IMG/VR virus record: IMGVR_UViG_3300032334_000389
Coordinates: 1 to 58,656 of that record
DNA: 58,656 nt
Strand: one strand, 5' to 3'
Source: a virus
Taxonomy: Duplodnaviria; Caudoviricetes
In this document: positions 153 through 58,656 of the stretch, in pieces
Layout of the letters: the number at the start of each line of letters is the position of its first letter
Numbering within the stretch: the stretch's first letter is position 1
Position numbers and translations under genes: made by a program
The notes under the pieces: generated by a model
Databases searched by the model: none
What the model saw: only the letters and a program-made list of their open reading frames with translations
Told to the model about the DNA's origin: nothing

Positions 153-396
153 ATCTTAAATATTTATATACCTTCGGCAATACCTCCATTGCCTTTTCAA
201 TGTTTTTATAATATACCTTACCTAAATTTTCTTTGGAGTGGTACTCCAGTCCTGTCTCCCTGTCGTAGTGGTAGTCCTTACCACACGCAGTTATGCCTCC
301 CTTCCTGACGGCTATGTACGCCCCACCTCCGTAGGGTTTGACGTACACCTGCCAGTCATTCTGTATTGCCCACCTGAAGTCGTCTGGATTTATCAA
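142..396 (-). CDS. Hypothetical protein (84 aa)
   Basis: ORF overlapping the primase stop and the next start, consistent with translational coupling. Confidence 0.75.
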   Translation of the reverse strand: MINPDDFRWAIQNDWQVYVKPYGGGAYIAVRKGGITACGKDYHYDRETGLEYHSKENLGKVYYKNIEKAMEVLPKVYKYLRYGK

Positions 397-2795
397 AACT
401 TAAACTCTTGTTCAGTGTGAATATCTCCATCCTTAGTAATGAACTTGATCCACCTGCCATTAGCATCCCTACCTTCAAGCGGAGTGACTCCAGTAACATA
501 CAACCCGTAAGACACTAACCACTTGTAAAACAACGTCCTACTGATAGTCATCTTAGCCTTAGGTGCAAAGTCTGGGTTGTCCATGATAAAGTCAAGGTAC
601 AGATCCTGCTTGTACAGAAGCTCATCCAACCTCATCTTATCGTTGTGCGAGTTACTATCTATCATACCACACCAGTCGATGAACTCGTGGCAGGTCTCTG
701 CAGATAACTTACGAACCTTAAGGTTTACAAATGTACTCTTTATTAGTCCAGTATTTAGATATGACTTCAAATTATTTATCATATAGTTATCGAACTTGCA
801 CCACTCCTCCTCGTCCCAGTCATTTAACAGCATACGTCCAAACTCCACGAATGGTGTGAACTCCTTGCTGTAGAACTGCCTGAACTCTAGCTCCCACTTC
901 CGTCTCTCGAACGAGTTACCCTTGCCCTTTATGGCGTAGTTAGTGGTGATCATAATCTTAGGTGAGCGGTTGAACGGCAGCTTTATCGCGTCCTTGTTCT
1001 TCTTCTCAACCGTAAGTCCTTCAGTAACAACGCTGAACAGACGCTCGAAGTCGAAGTGCTTCTTAACGTCATCGAAGCATAGCACCTGAGTCCCAACGTT
1101 AACTGTCTGGTACGCGAACGACTTGTCAAAGTTAAACGACTTACCGTCTATGGTGACCGTCTTCTTTATCTTAGACAGCGCGTTAACAAACAGTCCCTTA
1201 CCTGTACCACCCTCTGGGTTATCTGATATGACCTCGTCATTCAAGATAATCGCTGGGCAGTATGACGGGTTCTTGTACCCGTGCATAAGGAACCCTATCG
1301 TGCTCTCCATCGAGCTAACCCTCTGGGTGTCATCACCTGCGATGTTTGACACAAAGGTCTTGAAGTCGCACTCGGTGACCTCACATATCGCGAAGTCCCT
1401 GTCTATCACCTGATCCATCCATATGTAACCCTCAAGGTCTATGTAGTCTATTATGTCCACCTTGTCCTTAGTCACTTTAACCGCGCAGTTGTTGTAGTAC
1501 AGGTGAGCCGTGTCTGCCGTGTCCTCCACAAAGTACACGTCTACCGATCCTAGCAATGACAGGAAGTCCTCCTTAAAGAAACGCGTCTTGTCCGCGAAGT
1601 AGTTGTAGACAGATAGGTCGTCCATATTCTCAAGGTACGCAAGCACGAAGTCCTTGATCTCATCCTCCGACGTGTTATCTATCAGGTTGTTTGTAACCTT
1701 GACAAAGACAAACGTCTTGGTGTTCTCAGGGTAGAACTTATAGAACCCGTTATCCTCCAAGAACTCCTTGAATAGGAAGTGAATAATACTCACAGCACCC
1801 TTGTCATTCTTGGTCCAGAACCGCTTTGTGTCGCTATCAATCTTATCCAAGACCGCATCGATGACACCCTCCTCAATGTCGGTCATCTCAGACTTAATCT
1901 GCTTGGCTGTCGCCCCGTCCTTCACCTTCTTCTTAAGCTGAGACACACGTGCAGTATCCTCGTAGTACTTCGTGCCAAACTTATTAGTGTGGCTGTAGGC
2001 TGAGTTGATGGTCATCTTAATCTCAGACATTGGGAAGTCGGTCTGCTCGAACTGACCTATGATGTACTCCGCCAGTGACTTGTTTATGCCGTAGTCGTTG
2101 AAGGCTGCAGCCAGGATGTACACGTTGTGGTTACGCTCACCATCCACCATACCGTACTTAGATGTCCACCACTTTATAAGTATGTCGACTATCTTATTCT
2201 CGTTGGTGATAGGAATGGTAGGGGCACTCGATGCCTTCTGAATCTCAACGAACTCGTCCTCGTGCATCTGATCCCAGACCTTAGAGTCTTCGTTCACATA
2301 TATGTCCTTATCGTATGACTCGTAGCACACCCTTGATATGTTCTTGGATGTCGTGTCAAAGTAAGTAGAGTCGAAGTGTCTCTCAAGCGCGTTGAAGTAC
2401 CTGATGTGGTTCTCTATGTCCTGTGGTATCTTAACCAACACCTTCAGTCCATATCCTGACGGAGACACAAACACAGACATAACATACTCGTCTGATGCAA
2501 TAGAGCGCTTCTCAGCCATCATCTCTTTCTTGCTGGCATATCCATCAAAGTCAAGGCAGATCAGTCCGCTGTGCTCAGTTATTGAGTTATCGGCGCGCTT
2601 GGTAAATATACCCGAGAAGCATATCGCTGGGAGTGACTTCTTAAGTTCGTTACGCATTGACTTGTCCTGCTCCTGCTGAATACTCTCGATAAGCTCCCTG
2701 CTTGAGCCGTTCCTTATCCTATCAAGCACCACGTCTATGTGACGATAGAACGGTGTTGAGGTGCTTCGGATGTCCTTAAATATTGTTATTTTCAT
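393..2795 (-). CDS. Primase-helicase: VirE-N/BT4734-like AEP primase domain, PriCT-like domain and C-terminal P-loop helicase
   Basis: LKKSLPAICFSG, SGLICLDFD and SPSGYGLK primase motifs; GERNHN (PriCT-like); Walker A GGTGKG and Walker B-like LCFDD. Confidence 0.85.
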   Translation of the reverse strand: MKITIFKDIRSTSTPFYRHIDVVLDRIRNGSSRELIESIQQEQDKSMRNELKKSLPAICFSGIFTKRADNSITEHSGLICLDFDGYASKKEMMAEKRSIASDEYVMSVFVSPSGYGLKVLVKIPQDIENHIRYFNALERHFDSTYFDTTSKNISRVCYESYDKDIYVNEDSKVWDQMHEDEFVEIQKASSAPTIPITNENKIVDILIKWWTSKYGMVDGERNHNVYILAAAFNDYGINKSLAEYIIGQFEQTDFPMSEIKMTINSAYSHTNKFGTKYYEDTARVSQLKKKVKDGATAKQIKSEMTDIEEGVIDAVLDKIDSDTKRFWTKNDKGAVSIIHFLFKEFLEDNGFYKFYPENTKTFVFVKVTNNLIDNTSEDEIKDFVLAYLENMDDLSVYNYFADKTRFFKEDFLSLLGSVDVYFVEDTADTAHLYYNNCAVKVTKDKVDIIDYIDLEGYIWMDQVIDRDFAICEVTECDFKTFVSNIAGDDTQRVSSMESTIGFLMHGYKNPSYCPAIILNDEVISDNPEGGTGKGLFVNALSKIKKTVTIDGKSFNFDKSFAYQTVNVGTQVLCFDDVKKHFDFERLFSVVTEGLTVEKKNKDAIKLPFNRSPKIMITTNYAIKGKGNSFERRKWELEFRQFYSKEFTPFVEFGRMLLNDWDEEEWCKFDNYMINNLKSYLNTGLIKSTFVNLKVRKLSAETCHEFIDWCGMIDSNSHNDKMRLDELLYKQDLYLDFIMDNPDFAPKAKMTISRTLFYKWLVSYGLYVTGVTPLEGRDANGRWIKFITKDGDIHTEQEFKF

Positions 2796-7561: not shown

Positions 7562-7711
7562 TTAGTATGCTTTGATAGGGTTACTCACGTCTTCCTGCCA
7601 GTGGTTTATTTCCTTCCATACCCTGATAAGGTCGTTGGCTCTTGCCAAGTCCTTACCAGTTATAATTGTCTTATTAAATATGTCCCTTACCTCTTCCTCT
7701 ATTGTCTCCAT
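7562..7711 (-). CDS. Hypothetical protein (49 aa, METIEEEVRDIFNK...)
   Basis: Read manually; fills the gap between neighbours almost exactly. Confidence 0.6.
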   Translation of the reverse strand: METIEEEVRDIFNKTIITGKDLARANDLIRVWKEINHWQEDVSNPIKAY

Positions 7712-7890
7712 TACTTAGTTTGTTTTGTGCCGTAGTATGAACACACGGCTAGGTTAATAATTGAAGGTATAAATACCCATAATAAATTAGGGAAGACTTC
7801 GTTACTTCCTTCTACAGTGCTTATAAAAAATAAGATACCGAATACTGTTGCTGATGCTAGGAACCATAGTTCCCAAACTCGTTGATTCAT
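7711..7890 (-). CDS. Small membrane protein with two hydrophobic segments (59 aa, MNQRVWELWFLASATVFGILFF...)
   Basis: Read manually; TAATG coupling to the next gene. Confidence 0.6.
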   Translation of the reverse strand: MNQRVWELWFLASATVFGILFFISTVEGSNEVFPNLLWVFIPSIINLAVCSYYGTKQTK

Positions 7891-7900
7891 TTTTTTAGTG

Positions 7901-8194
7901 TTACTGGGCGCATAAGTCCCACGCGTTAATGTTTGTTTTTCTTGTTATGCCTAATTCCTTGCAGATAAATACTGCAAGTCTTTTGTTTACTGCAGGCAGC
8001 TCTATTTCGGGACTACCAATTTGTTTAACAATATAAATCGGATCCATTTCTAGTACTCTACTGCAAAATTTAACGTCTTGACCTAGATAGTATTGCTTGC
8101 CGTATGCCTCTAACGTCCACTCGTGCCCAAAGCCGTAGCTTCCTCGTGTTATAATTACTTTCATCTTATTAAATGTTAATATTAATTTGTTCAA
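7901..8194 (-). CDS. Hypothetical protein (probable start 8164, MKVIITRGSYGFGH...)
   Basis: YLGQDVKFCSRVL motif; ORF track. Confidence 0.7.
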   Translation of the reverse strand: MNKLILTFNKMKVIITRGSYGFGHEWTLEAYGKQYYLGQDVKFCSRVLEMDPIYIVKQIGSPEIELPAVNKRLAVFICKELGITRKTNINAWDLCAQ

Positions 8195-8360
8195 ATTGTG
8201 TTACTGTATGAATACCATTTGATAATTCTTTCCAATACTTAATGTCGTTTTTATTTTTATATATAAATTTTAAAAATCTATTAACTTGTTTACTATTAGC
8301 GCAAAAAATATTAAATTTTCTGCCGTCGTAAAACATTATTTCAAATAGTGTAGTTTGCAT
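8169..8360 (-). CDS. Hypothetical protein (63 aa)
   Basis: ORF track; A-rich leader. Confidence 0.65.
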   Translation of the reverse strand: MQTTLFEIMFYDGRKFNIFCANSKQVNRFLKFIYKNKNDIKYWKELSNGIHTVTQFEQININI

Positions 8361-8378
8361 TTTTTTTAGTTTAAATTG

Positions 8379-8548
8379 TTATGTCAGAATGTCGATTTTA
8401 TTCTCTCTATTCTCTTATATATATTTTTATTTATTTATTTATTTTTTTTACCTAGAAAGTAAAGAAAAAATCAGAATACTAACATAGAAAACGTTAAGCC
8501 TTGATTTCATTAACCTCAAGGCTATGACGTTTCTAAAAAAAATCGACA
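8379..8548 (+). repeat. Long imperfect inverted repeat, copy A (partner 10472-10642)
   Basis: Exact inverted blocks: 8407-8428 vs 10592-10613 (22 nt) and 8465-8488 vs 10532-10555 (24 nt); matching TTATGTCAGAA and AAAATCGACA ends. Confidence 0.9.
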
Positions 8549-8564
8549 TTGTTGTGTCGATAAT

Positions 8565-8720
8565 CTAGCATAACTTCCGAATTTCTTTTATATTTCTATA
8601 GTTTGGATTCGTGTTAAAGAATTTCTTCATCGCCTCGATACTATCGTTGGCTTCAATTTCTATTTCTTTTGTAAAGATATTGTCGTCAACTTCGCCCTGA
8701 TATTCGATTACATACTTCAT
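8565..8720 (-). CDS. Hypothetical protein (51 aa, MKYVIEYQGEVDDNIFTKEIEIEA...)
   Basis: Read manually; ATGA overlap with 8717..9058. Confidence 0.6.
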   Translation of the reverse strand: MKYVIEYQGEVDDNIFTKEIEIEANDSIEAMKKFFNTNPNYRNIKEIRKLC

Positions 8721-9058
8721 AGTTTAATGCTTTTAAAGTACTCCATATCGAATTTATATTCGTCACCATTGTAACTTGGATTGAAGGCTAAGACCTGCAT
8801 TTTGTCCGTCACTAGTGCAATGCTTTCCTGTGTCATAACTGAGGCGATGTTCTCAAAGTCCTGCAGTATCTTTGACTGCCTTGAGTACTTGTACTCCATA
8901 AGCCCCACAAATGTAGGCTCTACGTTTCCATTAAATTCCGCGTCGACTATTTGATAGGCCATAAGTCGATACTCTTTATTGCTTGCGATGTAGCTTATTA
9001 CACCTTCAGGTGTAAATAGGTTGTTGTTAAGTCCGATGTTTACTTGTAGTGTTCTCAT
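8717..9058 (-). CDS. Hypothetical protein (113 aa)
   Basis: ORF track; VNIGLNNN...EPTFV...QESIA. Confidence 0.75.
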   Translation of the reverse strand: MRTLQVNIGLNNNLFTPEGVISYIASNKEYRLMAYQIVDAEFNGNVEPTFVGLMEYKYSRQSKILQDFENIASVMTQESIALVTDKMQVLAFNPSYNGDEYKFDMEYFKSIKL

Positions 9059-9063
9059 TTTGT

Positions 9064-9222
9064 TTATTTATTAAATGTCCCCTCGTTTGTTGGGACGTGG
9101 TTATTAATTAGTTCTTTTAATCTTTCTAGGCTTTGCGCTTCTACATAGCCTTTACCTACATAGGCACGAAAGATAGTTCTAGTCGTGCCGTTAAATTCCT
9201 GCTCGTATGTTTCGTAGTTCAT
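9064..9222 (-). CDS. Hypothetical protein (52 aa, MNYETYEQEFNGTTRTIFRAYVGKGY...)
   Basis: Read manually; TAATG coupling. Confidence 0.55.
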   Translation of the reverse strand: MNYETYEQEFNGTTRTIFRAYVGKGYVEAQSLERLKELINNHVPTNEGTFNK

Positions 9223-9335
9223 TAGTTTATTGTTATAACGTTATTAATATCTAATATAACTAGTAACACGGCAAAGGCCATTACTGTAATGGTAAAATAA
9301 ATTTCACCTTCATTTCTTTTAATAAATGATTTCAT
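9222..9335 (-). CDS. Small single-pass membrane protein (37 aa, MKSFIKRNEGEIYFTITVMAFAVLLVIL...)
   Basis: Read manually. Confidence 0.55.
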   Translation of the reverse strand: MKSFIKRNEGEIYFTITVMAFAVLLVILDINNVITIN

Positions 9336-9336
9336 C

Positions 9337-9441
9337 TTAGTTAATGATTTTAGTTAATTCGATAATTGAAATAGTTGTTACGACTGTTAAGAGTATAAAT
9401 ACAAATATACTCTGCCCTGGATTTTGTTTTATTGCTTTCAT
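9337..9441 (-). CDS. Small single-pass membrane protein (34 aa, MKAIKQNPGQSIFVFILLTVVTTISII...)
   Basis: Read manually; ATGA coupling. Confidence 0.55.
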   Translation of the reverse strand: MKAIKQNPGQSIFVFILLTVVTTISIIELTKIIN

Positions 9442-9617
9442 TTTTTTTCTACTTTTAAAGTTATACAGTCCTGTTTATATATTAATACTTCATTTTTACT
9501 TTCTCCTACATTTGTACTATCAATAGGAGTAAAACCGTTTATTTTAATTAAGAATTCTAATTCTGATACTGAAATTTTATTCTCGTTAAAAATTTTTGCT
9601 ATTTGTTTTAAGTTCAT
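9438..9617 (-). CDS. Hypothetical protein (59 aa, MNLKQIAKIFNENK...), first gene downstream of the hammerhead
   Basis: Read manually; A-rich leader. Confidence 0.55.
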   Translation of the reverse strand: MNLKQIAKIFNENKISVSELEFLIKINGFTPIDSTNVGESKNEVLIYKQDCITLKVEKK

Positions 9618-9636
9618 TTTAATAAAGTTTTAAAGT

Positions 9637-9691
9637 TTACCGTTTCGTCCTTTTAGACTCGTCAGTCGAGGCACTCACCTCGAGACAGTAA
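9637..9691 (-). ncRNA. Type III hammerhead self-cleaving ribozyme
   Basis: UUACUGUC / stem I UCGAGG-UGAGUG-CCUCGA / CUGACGA / stem II GUCU-AAAA-GGAC / GAAA / CGGUAA; all core nucleotides and three stems present; GUC cleavage triplet ends at 9684. Confidence 0.93.
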
Positions 9692-9812
9692 CGACCTTAT
9701 AACTATGTAGTTTGTTAGTATCGTAGCTTCGCTTTTTACACTGAGTAGCCACACCCGCAGTTATCCTCTTGTCGAGTGTCAAATTAAAACTAGTTGTTTC
9801 GTTTTGACATTG

Positions 9813-9845
9813 CAAACATACGACAACAATACAATTCACTCCAAA
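9813..9845 (-). promoter_or_regulatory. Bacteroidota primary-sigma promoter for the leftward early operon
   Basis: TTTG (-33), 21-nt spacer, TATGTTTG (-7) on the minus strand. Confidence 0.8.
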
Positions 9846-10059
9846 TTTTTAACATAATTTTAACAGTATTATCGATGAACTACATAGTTTTACCGATTAA
9901 ATGCATAATCAATAAAGTATATTCTTACAATTATCTTTTGATATATTCTAACTTGTTGATAATTAGTAAGTTAAGATAAATGTATGTTTTGTATATATAG
10001 AACGCGTGCGCGCGTGTGTGTCGTGTGGGAAGTAATTGCCTATCGCTTTCTATCTTTCC

Positions 10060-10124
10060 ATAGATTTTATCTATCATAGATTATTTCTATAGGCCAATTG
10101 ATAAACCTTATAGTTACCTTTCAT
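10060..10124. repeat. Array of ATAG-N7-CTAT-like dyad boxes
   Basis: ATAGATTTTATCTAT (10060-10074), ATAGATTATTTCTAT (10076-10090), degenerate copies at 10097-10111 and 10110-10124. Confidence 0.55.
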
Positions 10125-10199
10125 CGTAAGAAAAACCTTAAGGCTTGGGGTTTATGTTGTGTCGATTAGTAACAATTCTATTTTACATAATAGCCGACA

Positions 10200-10226
10200 A
10201 CAAACGGTTACAAACGACTACAAACG
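10200..10226 (+). repeat. Three ACAAACG repeats at 10-bp periodicity
   Basis: Copies start at 10200, 10210 and 10220. Confidence 0.7.
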
Positions 10227-10441
10227 GGAGGCATAGGGACGTAAAATGTAGGCCGTCCTCCAGGAAGGCACCCGCCCAGGAAAAGCCAAAAACTTTGCAG
10301 GAAAATTCTGAAATTGGAACCCCCGTGTCGAAATTGAAGTCGCTTTCTTATAGCGATTCGGCGCGCAAATCCTATATATAACCCAAATACCCCACATTTC
10401 TACCCTATTTTTTTATCTCATCCCTTGCCACCAAAGGGCTG

Positions 10442-10481
10442 TGTCGATTTTTTAACTCTATGTCGATTTTGTGTCGATTTT
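10442..10481 (+). repeat. Three TGTCGATTTT direct repeats (iteron-like)
   Basis: Copies at 10442, 10461 and 10472; the same motif occurs at 8390 and inverted at 8539-8548. Confidence 0.8.
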
Positions 10482-10642
10482 AAAAAAGTTTGTCATAAGA
10501 TAACTTCTTGATTATTAATACTTTAACTATCTCTATGTTAGTATTCTGATTTTTTTCCTATTTCTACAGAAAAAAAAATAAAATATATATAAAAAATATA
10601 TATAAGAGAATAGGGAAGAAATTTTTGACATTTCTGACATAA
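10472..10642 (-). repeat. Long imperfect inverted repeat, copy B (partner 8379-8548)
   Basis: Same blocks as copy A in inverted orientation. Confidence 0.9.
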
Positions 10643-10684: not shown

Positions 10685-10692
10685 TATATTTG
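10685..10692 (+). promoter_or_regulatory. Bacteroidota -7 box upstream of the chaperonin operon
   Basis: TATATTTG(CA). Confidence 0.65.
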
Positions 10693-10847: not shown

Positions 10848-12431
10848 ATGAACGACTTAGTATTTGACAAGGAAGGAAGAGACAAGCTGGTAAAAGGTAT
10901 AACTACAATCAGTAAGGCCGTAAAGAGCACGTTGGGACCAAGGGGTAAGACGGTGCTAATTGAATCACAGAACCACACGAACGGCATAACCATCACCAAG
11001 GACGGTGTCACGGTTGCTAAATCAATTAACCTAAAGGATCCAGTTGAGAACCTTGCGGTTAGAATGATGAAGGAGGCCGCTGACAGGACTGCTACTAGTG
11101 CTGGTGACGGAACAACCACAGCGATCGTGCTCACTGAGGCTATGGTCACAAGGGGTAACGAGTTCATCACGGATAGGAACAACGCGACAGAGGTGCTGCG
11201 TAACGTGAACACTGTAGTGGACGGTGTGGTGAAGAGCCTAGAGAAGGTGAGTAAGAAGGTGAGTGGTAAGACGCTGAAGGACGTTGCGTCTATATCAGCT
11301 AACAACGACAGGGAGCTGGGTGCTATTATTGCTGACGCGTATAACAATGTCGGTAAGGAGGGTATCGTTACGGTTGAGAACTCGCAAACGGACAAGACCT
11401 ACAGCGAGGTGACCAACGGGATCAAGATAGACAGGGGCTACACGAGCAGACTGTTCGTGAACGATATGAAGAAGGAGGAGTGCATAATGGAGGACGTGTA
11501 CATTATGGTGACGGACCAGGAGATAAGTAACATACTGTCGATTGAGAACGTGCTGAAGCCGATCATAAATGGACAGAAGAAGTTATTGATAATTGGACCG
11601 TGTACTGGCAACGTGATAAACACGCTGGCCGCGAACGTGGCTCATAATAACTTGAAGTTCTGTAACATTCAGCCACCACAGTTTGGGTACAAGCAGCAGG
11701 AGCTGATGCAAGACATCGCGCTTGCGGTTGGGGCGAAGTACTTCAGCGAGCAGACGGGTGACGATTTGAGTCTAATCTCTATAGACCACCTTGGTAAGGC
11801 GGACAGGGTGATCGTTGGAAGGGACAGCACAGTCTTGGTTCGAAGCGAGACCTCAAACGAGGCGATTAGAGAGCGCGTTGAGCAGCTGTGGATACAGCAC
11901 AACAACTCAACGAGAAAGAACGACAGGGACGCGTTAAAAGAACGTATAGCGTCACTTACAGGTGGTGTTGGAGTTATATATGTTGGAGGAGGATCGGACG
12001 TGGAGCAGAAGGAGCGCTACGACAGGGTTGATGACGCGGTCTGCGCGGTAAGGTCGGCGCTAGAGGAGGGTATACTTCCAGGTGGAGGTGTGGCGCTGTA
12101 TAATATTGCGTCTGATATCATAGCGTACGCGGACGATAATATGGAGCACATAAGCCACGACCAGTACACCGCGATGCAGATCGTAGGATGGGCGATACAG
12201 TCACCGCTGCTGCAGATAATGGACAACGCTGGTAAGGACGGTTACGAGATGATGTCAGACGTAAACACACCAGGACACGGATACGATGTGAAGAACGAGT
12301 GCTACGGTGATATGTTCGGGATGGGGATCATAGATCCGCTGAAGGTTACGAAGAACGCGCTGAAGAACGCGGTCAGTGTAGCCACAACGATACTAAGCAC
12401 GAACGCAATCATAACCTTAACACGAGCGTAA
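10848..12431 (+). CDS. groEL: Chaperonin GroEL (Cpn60)
   Basis: STLGPRG, TKDGVTVAK, AGDGTTTA, ALEEGILPGGG and GIIDPLKV motifs. Confidence 0.97.
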   Translation: MNDLVFDKEGRDKLVKGITTISKAVKSTLGPRGKTVLIESQNHTNGITITKDGVTVAKSINLKDPVENLAVRMMKEAADRTATSAGDGTTTAIVLTEAMVTRGNEFITDRNNATEVLRNVNTVVDGVVKSLEKVSKKVSGKTLKDVASISANNDRELGAIIADAYNNVGKEGIVTVENSQTDKTYSEVTNGIKIDRGYTSRLFVNDMKKEECIMEDVYIMVTDQEISNILSIENVLKPIINGQKKLLIIGPCTGNVINTLAANVAHNNLKFCNIQPPQFGYKQQELMQDIALAVGAKYFSEQTGDDLSLISIDHLGKADRVIVGRDSTVLVRSETSNEAIRERVEQLWIQHNNSTRKNDRDALKERIASLTGGVGVIYVGGGSDVEQKERYDRVDDAVCAVRSALEEGILPGGGVALYNIASDIIAYADDNMEHISHDQYTAMQIVGWAIQSPLLQIMDNAGKDGYEMMSDVNTPGHGYDVKNECYGDMFGMGIIDPLKVTKNALKNAVSVATTILSTNAIITLTRA

Positions 12432-12432
12432 T

Positions 12433-12690
12433 ATGAAGCCACTTGGGAAATATGTGATAATAAACCAGATCGATGAGCAGGTCAAGTCTGACATCGGTCT
12501 GATAATGTCTGGGAGTGACACGTCTAAGATGCGTTACAAGAAGGCTGAGATAGTAAAGAAGGGTACAGATGTCAATTCTATAAACGATGGGGACATCGTC
12601 TACTACGACAAGAACGCTGGCTACAGTATGATGATAGGCGACAAAACCTACACAGTCATAATGGAGAGGGACGTGATCGTTGTGATTTAA
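12433..12690 (+). CDS. groES: Co-chaperonin GroES (Cpn10)
   Basis: MKPLGKYVII, mobile-loop SDIGLIM, GDIVYYDK, IMERDVIVVI; directly follows groEL. Confidence 0.9.
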   Translation: MKPLGKYVIINQIDEQVKSDIGLIMSGSDTSKMRYKKAEIVKKGTDVNSINDGDIVYYDKNAGYSMMIGDKTYTVIMERDVIVVI

Positions 12691-22273: not shown

Positions 22274-22501
22274 ATGGACGTAATAAGAAAGATATCAGTT
22301 GGCGCTGATTATAAGAATGGCGCTATGCACTACATAGTAGGTCAGGATGTTCTTAGCGGTAGCCATAGGATAAATCATATCGGAATAAATGAAAGCACTG
22401 GAGATTTTGAGATCTGGATCGAGAAGGATGACGAGATTAAGAAGTGGAAGAAGTTTAACGCTAATATGCCTATATCTACAGAGAATAATATTGACTTCTA
22501 A
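22274..22501 (+). CDS. Hypothetical protein (75 aa)
   Basis: IRKISVGADYKNGAMHYIVGQ; packaging module. Confidence 0.8.
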   Translation: MDVIRKISVGADYKNGAMHYIVGQDVLSGSHRINHIGINESTGDFEIWIEKDDEIKKWKKFNANMPISTENNIDF

Positions 22502-23067
22502 TGAAATCTCCATTTTACTTTGTCGTTAGACCTACAAACGGTAGGAGGTACGACAATATAAAGAAGATAGGCGGTATCGACTTTATAACCAGTGTATCTC
22601 AGGAGGACCACACGGCAACTAATAGGTTTGCTGAGGTTGTGTCAGTCCCAAATAACTATGTTGGCGACATCTGTGTCGGTGACATACTTCTAGTTCACCA
22701 CAACACGTTTAAAATTTATTATGATATGAAAGGTCAGGAGAGGAGCGGAACTAGCTTCTTGAAGGATGATCTTTTCTTTGTAGATGAGGATCAGTACTTT
22801 ATGTACAACCACAACGGAGAGTGGAGTACACACTCTAAGTACTGCTTCATAAAGCCAGTGAAGACTCGTGAGTCATACATAAGCAAGTGTGGCGTATACG
22901 AGCCGCTTATTGGGGTTGTTAAGTACTCAAATAGTGAGCTTAGAGATTTAGGAGTTGTAGAGGGCGACGAGGTATCATTTGAGCCAGATAGCGAGTACGA
23001 GTTTACTATTGACGGAGAGAAACTGTATAGGATGTTCACTAAAAATATTACAATTAAATGGAACTAA
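22501..23067 (+). CDS. Protein with two tandem GroES-like domains
   Basis: AEVVSVP...VGDILLVHH and GVVKYSN...GVVEGDEVSF...FTIDGEKLYRM. Confidence 0.55.
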   Translation: MKSPFYFVVRPTNGRRYDNIKKIGGIDFITSVSQEDHTATNRFAEVVSVPNNYVGDICVGDILLVHHNTFKIYYDMKGQERSGTSFLKDDLFFVDEDQYFMYNHNGEWSTHSKYCFIKPVKTRESYISKCGVYEPLIGVVKYSNSELRDLGVVEGDEVSFEPDSEYEFTIDGEKLYRMFTKNITIKWN

Positions 23068-52918: not shown

Positions 52919-53383
52919 TTAACAGTTCATCTTGATTATTGATTCAAGTCTCTCGTAAACTAGGAACTCTTTATCCCTTGGAACCTTGTCAAGTAAGGCG
53001 TGTAGTTTGCTTGACAGCCTAGCCTCAAGCTTATCAATTTTTGTTGATAAAACTATATTGTCATACCATATCTTATTGGTCTCACTTATATCCTTTATCT
53101 CCAATCCTTTAGAGTACACGTTTAGAATATTAAAGTACTTGTTTCTAAACCTGTCGTCATACTTGATCCAGCTGTCAAAGTTCTTGATGTAGTGGTAAAT
53201 AGTGGCGTGGTCCTTCTTAAGTATTCTTCCTACCTTTGTGTATCCAATATTATGGTACGAGTACATAATCTTTGAGAATATCGCCCTAGCCTCTACGTGA
53301 TCTTTTTCTCTGCTCTTGTTGAATATGTCTACATTATATTCAAACTCCATAATTCTTATCAGTTCATTTATATTATTCTCCAT
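52919..53383 (-). CDS. DnaA C-terminal (domain IV)-like HTH protein
   Basis: SREKDHVEARAIF...YTKVGRILKKDHATIYHY resembles the DnaA signature R.HTTV.H. Confidence 0.75.
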   Translation of the reverse strand: MENNINELIRIMEFEYNVDIFNKSREKDHVEARAIFSKIMYSYHNIGYTKVGRILKKDHATIYHYIKNFDSWIKYDDRFRNKYFNILNVYSKGLEIKDISETNKIWYDNIVLSTKIDKLEARLSSKLHALLDKVPRDKEFLVYERLESIIKMNC

Positions 53384-53649: not shown

Positions 53650-54318
53650 TTAACAATAAATTAAATTAGTATTATTTTTTAAATTACCATTAAGTCTATT
53701 TTTTAAAGTTGAAGGGTTTAAATTATTATATAAAGCTGCTTCTTTTGTTCCAAAATAAAAAATTCCTGTTTCTAAATTTAATATTATTTTAGAAAATTTA
53801 TTTCTTAAGTTTTGTTTTTCGCTTTCAGACATTACTTTATTACAACCTCTTTTATTACCTATAAGAGATAAAGACATTTTATTTTTTGTTTCTTTAGAAT
53901 GTTTTTTACCCATCATTGAATTAGACATTTTTTCCTTCCATTCTTTTGTGTTTTTATAACTCATATCCATTAAAGGTCTTTTTTTACCTTTTAAAGAATT
54001 TGATATTTTAATTTTACTATGTTCAGAATGACAACCTGATTTATCATTTGATTTAGCCAAACATAAATTAAGTCCATTATTCAAAACATTATAAAAATCC
54101 TGCCAATATCTTTCTCTTTCACTTAACAATTCAACATTACATTCTTCTATAATTTCAAATAAATGATTTTCTACTCCGTATTTTAAAAAAGACCTGTATA
54201 GTTTTATTTGTCTTTTACAATTTATTTTTTTATAAGTTTTAAATCTTCGATTTATATCTATACTTTTTCCTATATAAATCTTATTTGTTGGCGATGTAAT
54301 TTTGTATATTCCTATCAT
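53650..54318 (-). CDS. Free-standing GIY-YIG homing endonuclease with NUMOD3-type repeats
   Basis: MIGIYKIT...IYIGKS..RR..Y, ERERYWQ; HSEHSKIKIS and HSKETKNKMS repeats; very AT-rich. Confidence 0.9.
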   Translation of the reverse strand: MIGIYKITSPTNKIYIGKSIDINRRFKTYKKINCKRQIKLYRSFLKYGVENHLFEIIEECNVELLSERERYWQDFYNVLNNGLNLCLAKSNDKSGCHSEHSKIKISNSLKGKKRPLMDMSYKNTKEWKEKMSNSMMGKKHSKETKNKMSLSLIGNKRGCNKVMSESEKQNLRNKFSKIILNLETGIFYFGTKEAALYNNLNPSTLKNRLNGNLKNNTNLIYC

Positions 54319-57809: not shown

Positions 57810-58656
57810 TTAAAAATTTAATTCTAATTCAGTTTGACTTCTTGGTATTAAATCATTTATTCCACACATACCATTACACTCAAATAATGGTTCTACTTTT
57901 CTATCTGGCATATCTGCAAGTGATTTATTATTAGGGTATGCTGGATTGTGTTTTAGAAATACTAGGTGAGATTTTGAATCTACCTTCATATTTTCTTTAG
58001 CTTCATTTGATTGATCCTTAAGCATAGTTATAGGCTCACCCTTTAACTCTGTTAATTCGTGTTCTAAATCAGCCATAACATCAAACTTATCTGGAAAGTC
58101 TCTCTGCATTTTTTGCCAGTAACCTATTCCTCCTTGAACACATCCCGTGTTGAAGCAGTTATTGTTTTGAAACCCTAACTTATACATTTCAGGTATTTCC
58201 AATCCAGCATCCTCGACAATTTTAATACAATCTTTCTTATCATAACCCATTAATAATAGTGGGTATATAGCCTTAGTTCTTTTCCCGTGATTCAATGTCA
58301 TTGATAATGCTCTGTTAAATTCTTTCTTATCAAACTCAAATCCAAAGACTTGATGTTTAAACTCATTAGTCTTCTCCCATTTTTCACGCACTAATCTTTT
58401 TAAATTAGTAGAACATATAGCACCAGTCGCAGTGTTTAAAGATTTATGTTTTCTCCAAACATCAAAGATACTTCCGTACTTTTCTCCTATACCAGTTATA
58501 ATTTCTATTTCAAGACCGTACCATTGCTCACAGTCTTTTTTAAATCTGTAGGTGTCTGGGTGTTCGTTTTGAGTATCAATCATTATAACTCTACAATTCC
58601 CCGCCCCATAAATATCTATAGCTAATTTACAAGCTACTGCTGAGGTTATTCCTCCA
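57810..58656 (-). CDS. PAPS-reductase-like protein, C-terminal part (true start at 152 across the junction)
   Basis: EHPDTYRF, CSTNLK, YPL, MYKLGFQNNNC..GCVQGG and ECNGMCG Cys motifs. Confidence 0.8.
   Translation of the reverse strand, partial: GGITSAVACKLAIDIYGAGNCRVIMIDTQNEHPDTYRFKKDCEQWYGLEIEIITGIGEKYGSIFDVWRKHKSLNTATGAICSTNLKRLVREKWEKTNEFKHQVFGFEFDKKEFNRALSMTLNHGKRTKAIYPLLLMGYDKKDCIKIVEDAGLEIPEMYKLGFQNNNCFNTGCVQGGIGYWQKMQRDFPDKFDVMADLEHELTELKGEPITMLKDQSNEAKENMKVDSKSHLVFLKHNPAYPNNKSLADMPDRKVEPLFECNGMCGINDLIPRSQTELELNF
58534..58656. repeat. Terminal direct repeat, right copy
   Basis: Identical to 1-123. Confidence 0.97.

Follow-up and report, generated by a model that had tools for sequence, protein, structure and literature searches.

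The window analysed here is a whole IMG/VR virus record of 58,656 bp from a freshwater phage (IMGVR_UViG_3300032334_000389; Duplodnaviria, Caudoviricetes), and it contains two inverted copies of a non-coding element, which we call the left module (8379-8563, minus strand) and the right module (10440-10642, plus strand). From sequence comparison we infer that these modules are replication origins of the type found in the pathogenicity islands of Staphylococcus aureus (SaPIs) and phage-inducible chromosomal islands (PICIs), where a self-loading superfamily 3 (SF3) helicase acts, and we put the probability of this reading at roughly 0.6. It is carried by the anatomy of the modules, by their conservation, and by the co-variation of their short repeated motifs (iterons) with the 800-aa primase-helicase encoded in the same genome, all of which are observed directly. 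That the modules are binding arrays of this primase-helicase we regard, on the same comparisons, as likely.

An earlier first-pass annotation, made from the letters of the window alone, had described inverted copies of ~170 bp with exact 22- and 24-nt blocks, and a repeat search, BLAST and nhmmer all confirmed them. The repeat search paired arms at 8388-8497 and 10523-10632 (110 nt, 75% complementary without gaps), BLAST within the genome gave 81% identity over 119 nt (E 1.3e-23) at these two places and nowhere else, and nhmmer with a profile of 19 copies returned only two significant sites in the 58.6 kb (E 7e-50 and 3e-49). The 24-nt block at 8465-8488 is the exact reverse complement of 10532-10555, the 22-nt block at 8407-8428 that of 10592-10613, and the copies lie 2.1 kb apart. 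A partial third site at 8239-8284 (TGTCGTTTTT, a T tract and the palindromic TTATATATAA), inside a 63-aa open reading frame (ORF) at 8169-8360, was not significant in the profile search (E 7.8).

Both copies have an AT-rich core of 45-50 bp with ATATATATAAGAGAATAG at its end and, on each side of it, two to four TGTC-type iterons that point towards the core; the inward-facing TGTC motifs that had been described are present in each. At least two iterons stand on either side of the AT-rich centre, opposed, in both window copies and in 19/19 aligned copies, and both modules have the iteron number of SaPI/PICI origins (6-12 of 5-7 nt). In the right module they start at 10442, 10461, 10472, 10491, 10626 and 10634, and in the left at 8381, 8390, 8524, 8543 and 8555, with a degenerate pair in addition within each 24-nt block. 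The motif TGTCGATTTT occurs exactly five times in the genome, at 8390, 8539 (minus strand), 10442, 10461 and 10472, all within 8390-10481, and the extra copies at 10442 and 10461 listed in the first pass are two of these. Nine of the 19 genome copies of TGTCGA/TCGACA fall in 8390-10472, and all four copies of TGTGTCGAW lie in the region (shuffle mean 0.54; none of 100 shuffles reached four). Both AT cores are among the genome's four least stable 60-nt windows (-58.3 and -58.4, against a mean of -75.0 and a standard deviation of 5.4), with 89% A+T in the 45 nt adjoining the conserved core.

Read outward, the left module consists of inner iterons (8524-8563; ATGACG, TCGACAT and TGTGTCGATAA), hairpins, the AT-rich core (8415-8451), the conserved core ATATATATAAGAGAATAG (8407-8424, minus strand) and an outer iteron pair (8381-8399, plus strand; ATGTCAG and TGTCGATTTT), some 20 nt past which the first leftward gene has its start codon (8360). 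Its 24-nt block is a degenerate inward-facing iteron pair, in whose place three relatives (L009, L010 and L011; L and G numbers are our own handles) have true TGTCG sites. A hairpin at 8498-8522 (minus strand; GCCTTGA..TCAAGGC) is confined to left copies, two of which (L017 and L013) have a different sequence at the site that is still hairpin-forming, and minus strand 8561-8542 reads as a hairpin followed by T8, which is terminator-like; judged by sequence, the two hairpins together are probably the terminator of the operon of small genes lying between the modules. The right module runs outward on the plus strand, from three copies of TGTCGATTTT and TGTCAT (10442-10496) through the 24-nt block (10532-10555) to an AT-rich core (10565-10613) that ends in ATATATATAAGAGAATAG (10596-10613), and thence to an outer pair on the minus strand (10626-10640; plus-strand TGACAT and CTGACAT, equal to minus-strand TGTCA). 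Beyond it, at 10685-10692 (plus strand), a Bacteroidetes-type sigma-A -7 box, TATATTTG, precedes a 41-aa ORF and groEL.

The modules are not a structured RNA, because RNAalifold gave 0 consensus pairs for 16 outward-strand copies and Rfam found nothing inside them, either at the gathering threshold in the whole window, where there were 0 matches, or at E <= 10 over 8-11 kb, where a hammerhead was the sole meaningful match. A four-codon mini-ORF (ATG TTA GTA TTC TGA) in the 24-nt block was rejected as a candidate, being missing from L013, L009_Rt and L011_Rt.

A search with GroEL led to 15 viral contigs, and both copies are found, inverted and 2.7-3.7 kb apart, in all seven that have enough upstream sequence, so that a search of relatives for the same paired motif, which the first pass had recommended, gave a positive answer. 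The other eight comprise four that are cut and retain the right copy only, one without upstream sequence, and three that are distant (no BLAST match). Orthologous copies are 75-80% identical, and paralogous copies 64.1% within a genome and 63.9% between genomes. Because paralogues are equally alike within and between genomes while orthologues are closer, the duplication is old, both copies are under selection and there has been no gene conversion, which bears out the earlier remark that conservation is blockwise and not that of a recent duplication. The length of the module is constant to 1-3 nt, despite a 35-nt segment that is unrelated between left and right copies. In the alignment of 19 copies the outward order is inner iterons (TG[T/A]CG..TTTT, GTCAT), the 35 variable nt, an iteron pair that is either degenerate or true, an AT tract of 45-50 bp, the nearly invariant ATATATATAAGAGAATAG, and two reversed iterons (CGACAT, TGACAT).

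A TAnnTTTG box follows the right copy by 26-55 nt in 11/11 right copies examined; none was found between the left module and its gene in eight left copies, which precede the gene start by 0 to ~56 nt, or inside the modules in either direction. The reading that we first favoured, duplicated divergent promoters with each outer end facing an operon, was dropped as the main reading, since in most relatives the genes on both flanks run antisense to the core, which is antisense also in L068. Core orientation thus varies between lineages, which argues against the core being a mere promoter of the downstream operon, and the outward-facing symmetry of the two copies would arise with any inverted pair located where transcription diverges.

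The candidate iteron binder is the 800-aa primase-helicase (393-2795, minus strand), in which BT4734-like_N, PriCT_1 (weak) and DUF5906 domains were recognised, the last at 34.4 bits against a cut-off of 27.6, together with a Walker-A-like GGTGKG and a C-terminal hairpin, EGRDANGRW. Foldseek with a low-confidence model of the protein gave matches restricted to primase-helicases (African swine fever virus PrimPol, NrS-1, SaPI5 7OLA and monkeypox virus E5), and PDB sequence searches with the window protein alone and with a 19-sequence profile returned nothing relevant. A search for the family returned 5570 proteins at E <= 1e-5, mostly on aquatic phage contigs of 50-65 kb, and we sampled the 80 best of 567 loci and examined the position of the element in 74. 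There, 61 proximal element matches place a module directly 5' of the primase-helicase gene, and in relatives the inner iterons reach its start codon. The modules of the window stand 5.6 and 7.7 kb upstream of the gene, and a module that is both distant (7-9.5 kb) and inverted was met in the window's clade only (L084-L086). Six loci (L090, L109, L128, L133, L141 and L149) have a second, direct-orientation copy 8.7-9.5 kb upstream, and in the three of these that contain groEL it lies ~100-450 nt before that gene with its outer end groEL-ward, as in the window. Lone groEL-side copies occur in G010 and, diverged or partial, in L016 and L014. Upstream of the primase-helicase gene at a number of loci (L097, L104, L100, L162 and others), the module is preceded by a gene with an acidic terminal stretch, ...D(D/L)LPF, like the C-terminal tail of single-stranded DNA-binding proteins; after this gene come a strong GC hairpin and a run of T.

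Across the family the iterons change together with the C-terminal hairpin. Among the 68 loci with at least 260 nt of upstream sequence, 25 combine TGTC-type iterons with Arg (hairpin motif RD..G-R-W) and 11 combine TGTT-type iterons with Lys (G-K-W), while 32 are ambiguous and none is discordant; the window itself pairs the G-R-W hairpin with TGTC iterons. In a protein tree built with the last 130 residues removed, supported branches force at least seven changes of the Lys/TGTT state, and groEL-side copies match the iteron type of their own genome (TGTT in L090, TGTC in L109). Given that the iterons lie 5' and the hairpin 3' of a protein body that does not co-vary, the match must be selected and is not explained by linkage alone, and since the iteron base tracks a C-terminal residue, the iteron arrays are very probably binding sites of the primase-helicase.

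A second lineage with the same module was found by a scan for the 17-nt core together with a profile search (L049, L027, L055, L064, L030, L069, L038 and others); because it was found via that 17-mer, the conservation of the 17-mer in it is partly by selection, and nine loci with the 17-mer but no other likeness were left out by the profile. Here the module stands directly 3' of pri (PriCT_1) and rep (D5_N, DUF5906) genes, a position seen in this lineage only, and rep matches SaPI5 PriRep5 (PDB 7OLA) at E 9e-79. Iterons lie at about -142/-134/-123, -56/-48 and +26/+34 around the 17-mer, nearly as in the window, and they are of four kinds (TGTTCC, TGTCCC, TGTAAC or TGTTAC), specificities that are matched by the C terminus of rep. 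Its last 100 aa follow iteron type, with 87-100% identity within a type and 47-82% between types, whereas the helicase core is 91-99% identical among nine single-type rows and 85-89% to two mixed-type rows, and a neighbouring 90-aa helix-turn-helix protein shows no tracking of iteron type. Between L049 and L055, 10/12 iterons differ at one same position, with spacers and AT core unchanged. The window protein and island Rep are linked only by Pfam DUF5906 and weak fold matches, BLASTP giving no significant similarity (E 0.35). The 17-nt core ATATATATAAGAGAATAG, shared with these unrelated pri-rep islands that use different iterons, could be a loading or priming signal for PriCT-type primase/SF3 machines, beyond its AT-richness.

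In L049, L055, L038, L030 and ten more IMG/VR loci, the pri and rep genes (the latter a homologue of SaPI5 PriRep5) and the origin are flanked by chromosomal genes, namely amino-acid permease, HdcB and ArgR. Two island records are of ~12 kb and one is classed as a provirus, and these ~12-kb integrated islands look like PICI-type satellites. The 17-mer is also found in tandem arrays with a ~289-bp period on giant viral contigs of 339-733 kb (L033, L035, L045, L048 and others), with no other likeness to the module; these arrays are probably unrelated. A scan of genome contigs with a composite pattern gave three matches, all chance, in coding sequence.

The modules sit at the genome's sole divergence point, because the two transcription arms run apart there: leftward genes extend from ~10.6 kb across the record ends to 51.0 kb, and rightward genes from 10.7 to 51.0 kb. 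The 'direct terminal repeat' of the record is a 123-bp overlap within ORF 57810-58655, far from the modules; being inside an ORF, it is taken as an assembly overlap, so that a circular or permuted assembly was cut at an arbitrary place to give the record ends. On the leftward arm lie small ORFs, genes for a Sak annealing protein and a PDDEXK nuclease, the primase-helicase gene and, beyond the record ends, genes for a helicase, a VRR-NUC nuclease, a GIY-YIG endonuclease (a homing-endonuclease-like gene at 53650-54318, minus strand, inside this replication arm) and a protein with DnaA domain IV. On the rightward arm groEL (527 aa) and groES (85 aa) form the first operon (10848-12690, plus strand), followed by lysozyme, terminase, portal and structural genes, with terminase and portal at 23.3-28.0 kb. 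A 188-aa ORF directly before terminase (22501-23067, plus strand) matches the PHROG 'co-chaperonin GroES' at E 5e-20, with no Pfam match, and is additional to the Cpn10 gene at 12433-12690. TAnnTTTG boxes of Bacteroidetes type stand ahead of plus-strand operons at 10685, 13513, 21747, 27999, 32826, 33207 and 40758, and a sigma-70 consensus scan gave no excess (14, against 14.3 in shuffles). The nearest named phages are Flavobacterium Elemoviruses, distant relatives only: the single matching stretch in a phage database was a 113-aa gene region in seven Elemovirus records (67-68%), and the phage elemoB has no comparable repeat pair. A tRNA scan of the window found none, and among the 50 of its 83 ORFs that were scanned there was no Pfam match to a DNA polymerase family.

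The bracketed cassette (8565-9820, minus strand) was largely as first described: six small ORFs on the minus strand span 8565-9617, a -7 box of Bacteroidetes type stands at 9813 on the same strand, and a non-coding tract covers ~9.62-10.47 kb; its hammerhead is less secure, the type III match in the early-cassette leader (9637-9691, minus strand; E 1.8e-7) scoring 43.3 bits, below the Rfam gathering score of 48.5. By eye, hammerhead-like CUGAUGAG...CGAAAC is also seen in elemoB (L022, ~7680-7730) and G010 (L079, ~8150-8200). Neither Pfam nor PHROGs gave a match to a DNA-binding family or helix-turn-helix repressor in the four of six cassette ORFs scanned (all but 9222-9335 and 9337-9441). In the non-coding tract, a motif CCTATATATAACCCAAA(T/C)AC at 10369-10391, 50-70 nt inside the right module, is invariant save for one T/C position in 9/9 aligned relatives, including the most distant, and has TATATATAA in common with the module core. 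Three ACAAACG(G/A) direct repeats with 10-nt phasing lie at 10200-10229 and a GC-rich alternating purine-pyrimidine tract, GCGTGCGCGCGTGTGTGTCGTGTG, at 10000-10029, and in L016 the corresponding position is taken by a CACACG-rich tract; these repeats and the alternating tract could be a further origin or control feature. RNAalifold gave weak structure (-4.5 kcal/mol) for 10225-10445.

If the modules are origins, the primase-helicase would bind the iterons through its C-terminal domain, with hexamers forming on either side that would open the AT core, load themselves and prime synthesis; binding, melting and firing are steps that we infer. The normal layout of the phage family is two direct-orientation modules, one abutting the primase-helicase gene and the other before groEL. 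The window's clade departs from it in that the first module has been turned round and now heads the leftward replication operon, so that the pair brackets the early cassette as inverted repeats separated by 2.1-3.7 kb, each facing outward at the head of one arm. With each module adjoining the start of an operon, and no host-type box behind the terminators for the left one, helicase binding probably also modulates those operons. The first-pass annotation had preferred paired, oppositely oriented origins, placed close to the two ends of the linear virion DNA: 'origin-like' is the part best supported, by anatomy and by the co-variation of iteron and C terminus, but the placement near virion ends is unsupported, the record ends being assembly overlap and the copies 2.1 kb apart.

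Several points weigh against the origin reading. The case for initiation is built from assembled contigs only, and each module invariably adjoins a gene start, one at the groEL promoter and the other at the top of the replication operon, which is equally how operators would lie; promoter activity even seems required in the left module, because terminator-like hairpins lie upstream and there is no TAnnTTTG box. In contrast to SaPIs, the modules are not 3' of the helicase gene, but 5' of it in relatives and kilobases off in the window. The GC-skew minimum at 10-11 kb is uninformative, since it coincides with the strand switch. The model of the primase-helicase has a mean pLDDT (predicted local distance difference test score) of 56.5 over its full length (locally 70-85) and 45.8 for the C-terminal 150 aa alone, and a winged-helix fold of the C-terminal domain is putative. 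The thresholds for iteron type were set by us, with 32/68 loci ambiguous (L156, for example, has Arg with counts of 3 TGTC and 5 TGTT), and the protein tree came from a quick search only.

The main rival, rather unlikely but deserving serious weight, is that the modules are pure operators: by binding there, the primase-helicase or a different early protein would repress or activate the flanking operons, and replication would start elsewhere, for example in the 9.8-10.4 kb non-coding tract; the AT-rich tract would then be an UP-like or promoter element, and the targets would be groEL/groES to the right and the replication and recombination genes to the left. An operon start adjoins every copy in every lineage, the box downstream of the right copies is constant, the left copies follow terminator-like hairpins without a host-type box and so need an internal promoter, and iterons that reach the helicase start codon are the classic layout of Rep autoregulation. 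Moreover, all six genome copies of TATATATAA fall in 8257-10605, and the phased ACAAACG repeats and invariant motif of the adjacent tract could mark the true origin. Yet the module is free of TAnnTTTG boxes in both directions, most relatives have the core antisense to the genes on both flanks, there is no structured leader among the 16 sequences folded, and a layout of opposed iterons and AT core that can be superimposed on a bona fide pri-rep-ori island exceeds what an operator needs. An unlikely elaboration of the origin reading is a coupled pair, in which hexamers bridge the modules and origin firing is tied to the switch-on of groEL and the replication operon, with the 17-nt core as a general signal; were it true, the two-module design would be a replication-transcription timing device across more than 5000 aquatic phage helicases.

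Of the binders named in the first pass, the co-variation favours the primase-helicase, but the DnaA-domain-IV protein (154 aa; 52919-53383, minus strand) is real: it has a helix-turn-helix match to Bac_DnaA_C at 30.8 bits (cut-off 31.5; E 3e-7) and a KKDHATIYHY stretch, although a PDB sequence search with it gave nothing relevant. We consider it improbable that this protein is the origin-binding protein or regulator, with TGTCGATAA/TTATCGACA as a variant DnaA box. One such one-mismatch box lies inside the left module, where TTATCGACA at 8555-8563 is a single mismatch from TTATCCACA, the DnaA box consensus; homologues were found in three of five relative records searched, the other two being incomplete contigs, and none in elemoB, which is without modules. 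A further homologue, 27% identical, occurs in G007. However, the complete relative G010 keeps ATGTCGATTTT iterons, core and primase-helicase and has no homologue at E <= 0.01, one-mismatch boxes are not enriched genome-wide (20, against 18.3 expected), and the iteron base co-varies with a hairpin residue of the primase-helicase. Packaging or terminus signals (pac/cos sites or terminal-repeat boundaries), an earlier proposal that fits conserved non-coding repeats close to a long non-coding tract, are very improbable, given that the 123-bp end repeat is intra-ORF and far away, the terminase and portal genes lie elsewhere, the source contig is continuous through both modules, and the sites co-vary with a replication protein. 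The earlier suggestion of an invertible segment, in which recombination between the arms would flip the 1.9-kb cassette and its promoter, is scarcely credible. Inverted repeats do bracket a promoter-bearing cassette, and the phage has Sak and PDDEXK recombination genes, but PF00239 (Resolvase) and PF00589 (Phage_integrase) had 0 six-frame matches while controls fired in 12 and 14 of 14 genomes, in agreement with the earlier statement that no recombinase is encoded. In addition, the cassette is colinear with the window in 7/7 relatives, identity between the arms is only 75-81% and no exact run exceeds 24 nt, and no gene conversion has passed between them; more weakly, as contigs drop rare variants, one source-run contig spans the region in the same order and no strand-change joint was seen in four contig sets.

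Iteron origins for self-loading SF3 helicases are already known. In the literature results as listed, we found no description of the origins of this helicase family, nor of the conserved two-module system, the inverted close-set arrangement, the shared 17-nt core or the rule linking hairpin Arg/Lys to iteron C/T. Should the modules be origins, sequence alone would reveal where replication starts in this phage group, the Arg-TGTC/Lys-TGTT rule would become testable for self-loading SF3 helicases, and the recurring two-module design, inverted and close-set in this clade, would lead one to ask whether the early-to-middle switch is under the control of origin pairing.

Comparison with known systems shows partial likenesses in several directions. 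Like OL and OR of phage lambda, the modules are two related, opposed control regions ~2 kb apart that stand on either side of a small leftward cassette, at the heads of divergent operons of which one has recombination genes; unlike lambda, the scanned cassette ORFs have no repressor match, neither module has a host-type promoter box, the AT-rich core has opposed iterons, and no integrase is encoded. The Reps of iteron plasmids initiate at ori, autorepress their own promoter and load DnaB, and are not helicases, and their iteron arrays are direct; here the iterons are opposed, but in relatives they likewise reach the start codon of the initiator, so that a single protein could both initiate and self-regulate. 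In satellite phage P4, two cis regions 4.5 kb apart, ori and crr, carry octamer iterons and are both bound by the alpha primase-helicase. The likeness lies in a primase-helicase with a C-terminal origin-binding domain, putative in the window protein, and in two separate iteron regions kilobases apart, but the P4 regions differ from one another, whereas the modules here are full mutual copies.

The closest parallel that we would draw is with SaPIs. According to passages of PMC9371898 and bioRxiv 10.64898/2026.10.17.759575, SaPI origins have 6-12 penta- or hexanucleotide iterons about an AT-rich centre, with at least two opposed iterons per side, that are bound by the winged-helix C-terminal domain of Rep (a primase-Rep fusion in SaPI5), and self-loading and melting are proposed for these Reps. 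Unlike these, the present replicon is a ~59-kb virulent-type phage with Bacteroidetes-style promoters and not a satellite, it has two modules per genome, and its AT core ends in a conserved 17-nt motif. With SaPI/PICI origins, as those passages describe them, the modules share opposed short iterons flanking an AT-rich centre in a total of 170-300 bp, a cognate SF3 helicase on the same element, fused to a primase as in SaPI5, and a putative C-terminal specificity domain that changes together with the iteron; as origins, they would tie virulent Bacteroidetes-type phages mechanistically to the SaPI/PICI replicon.

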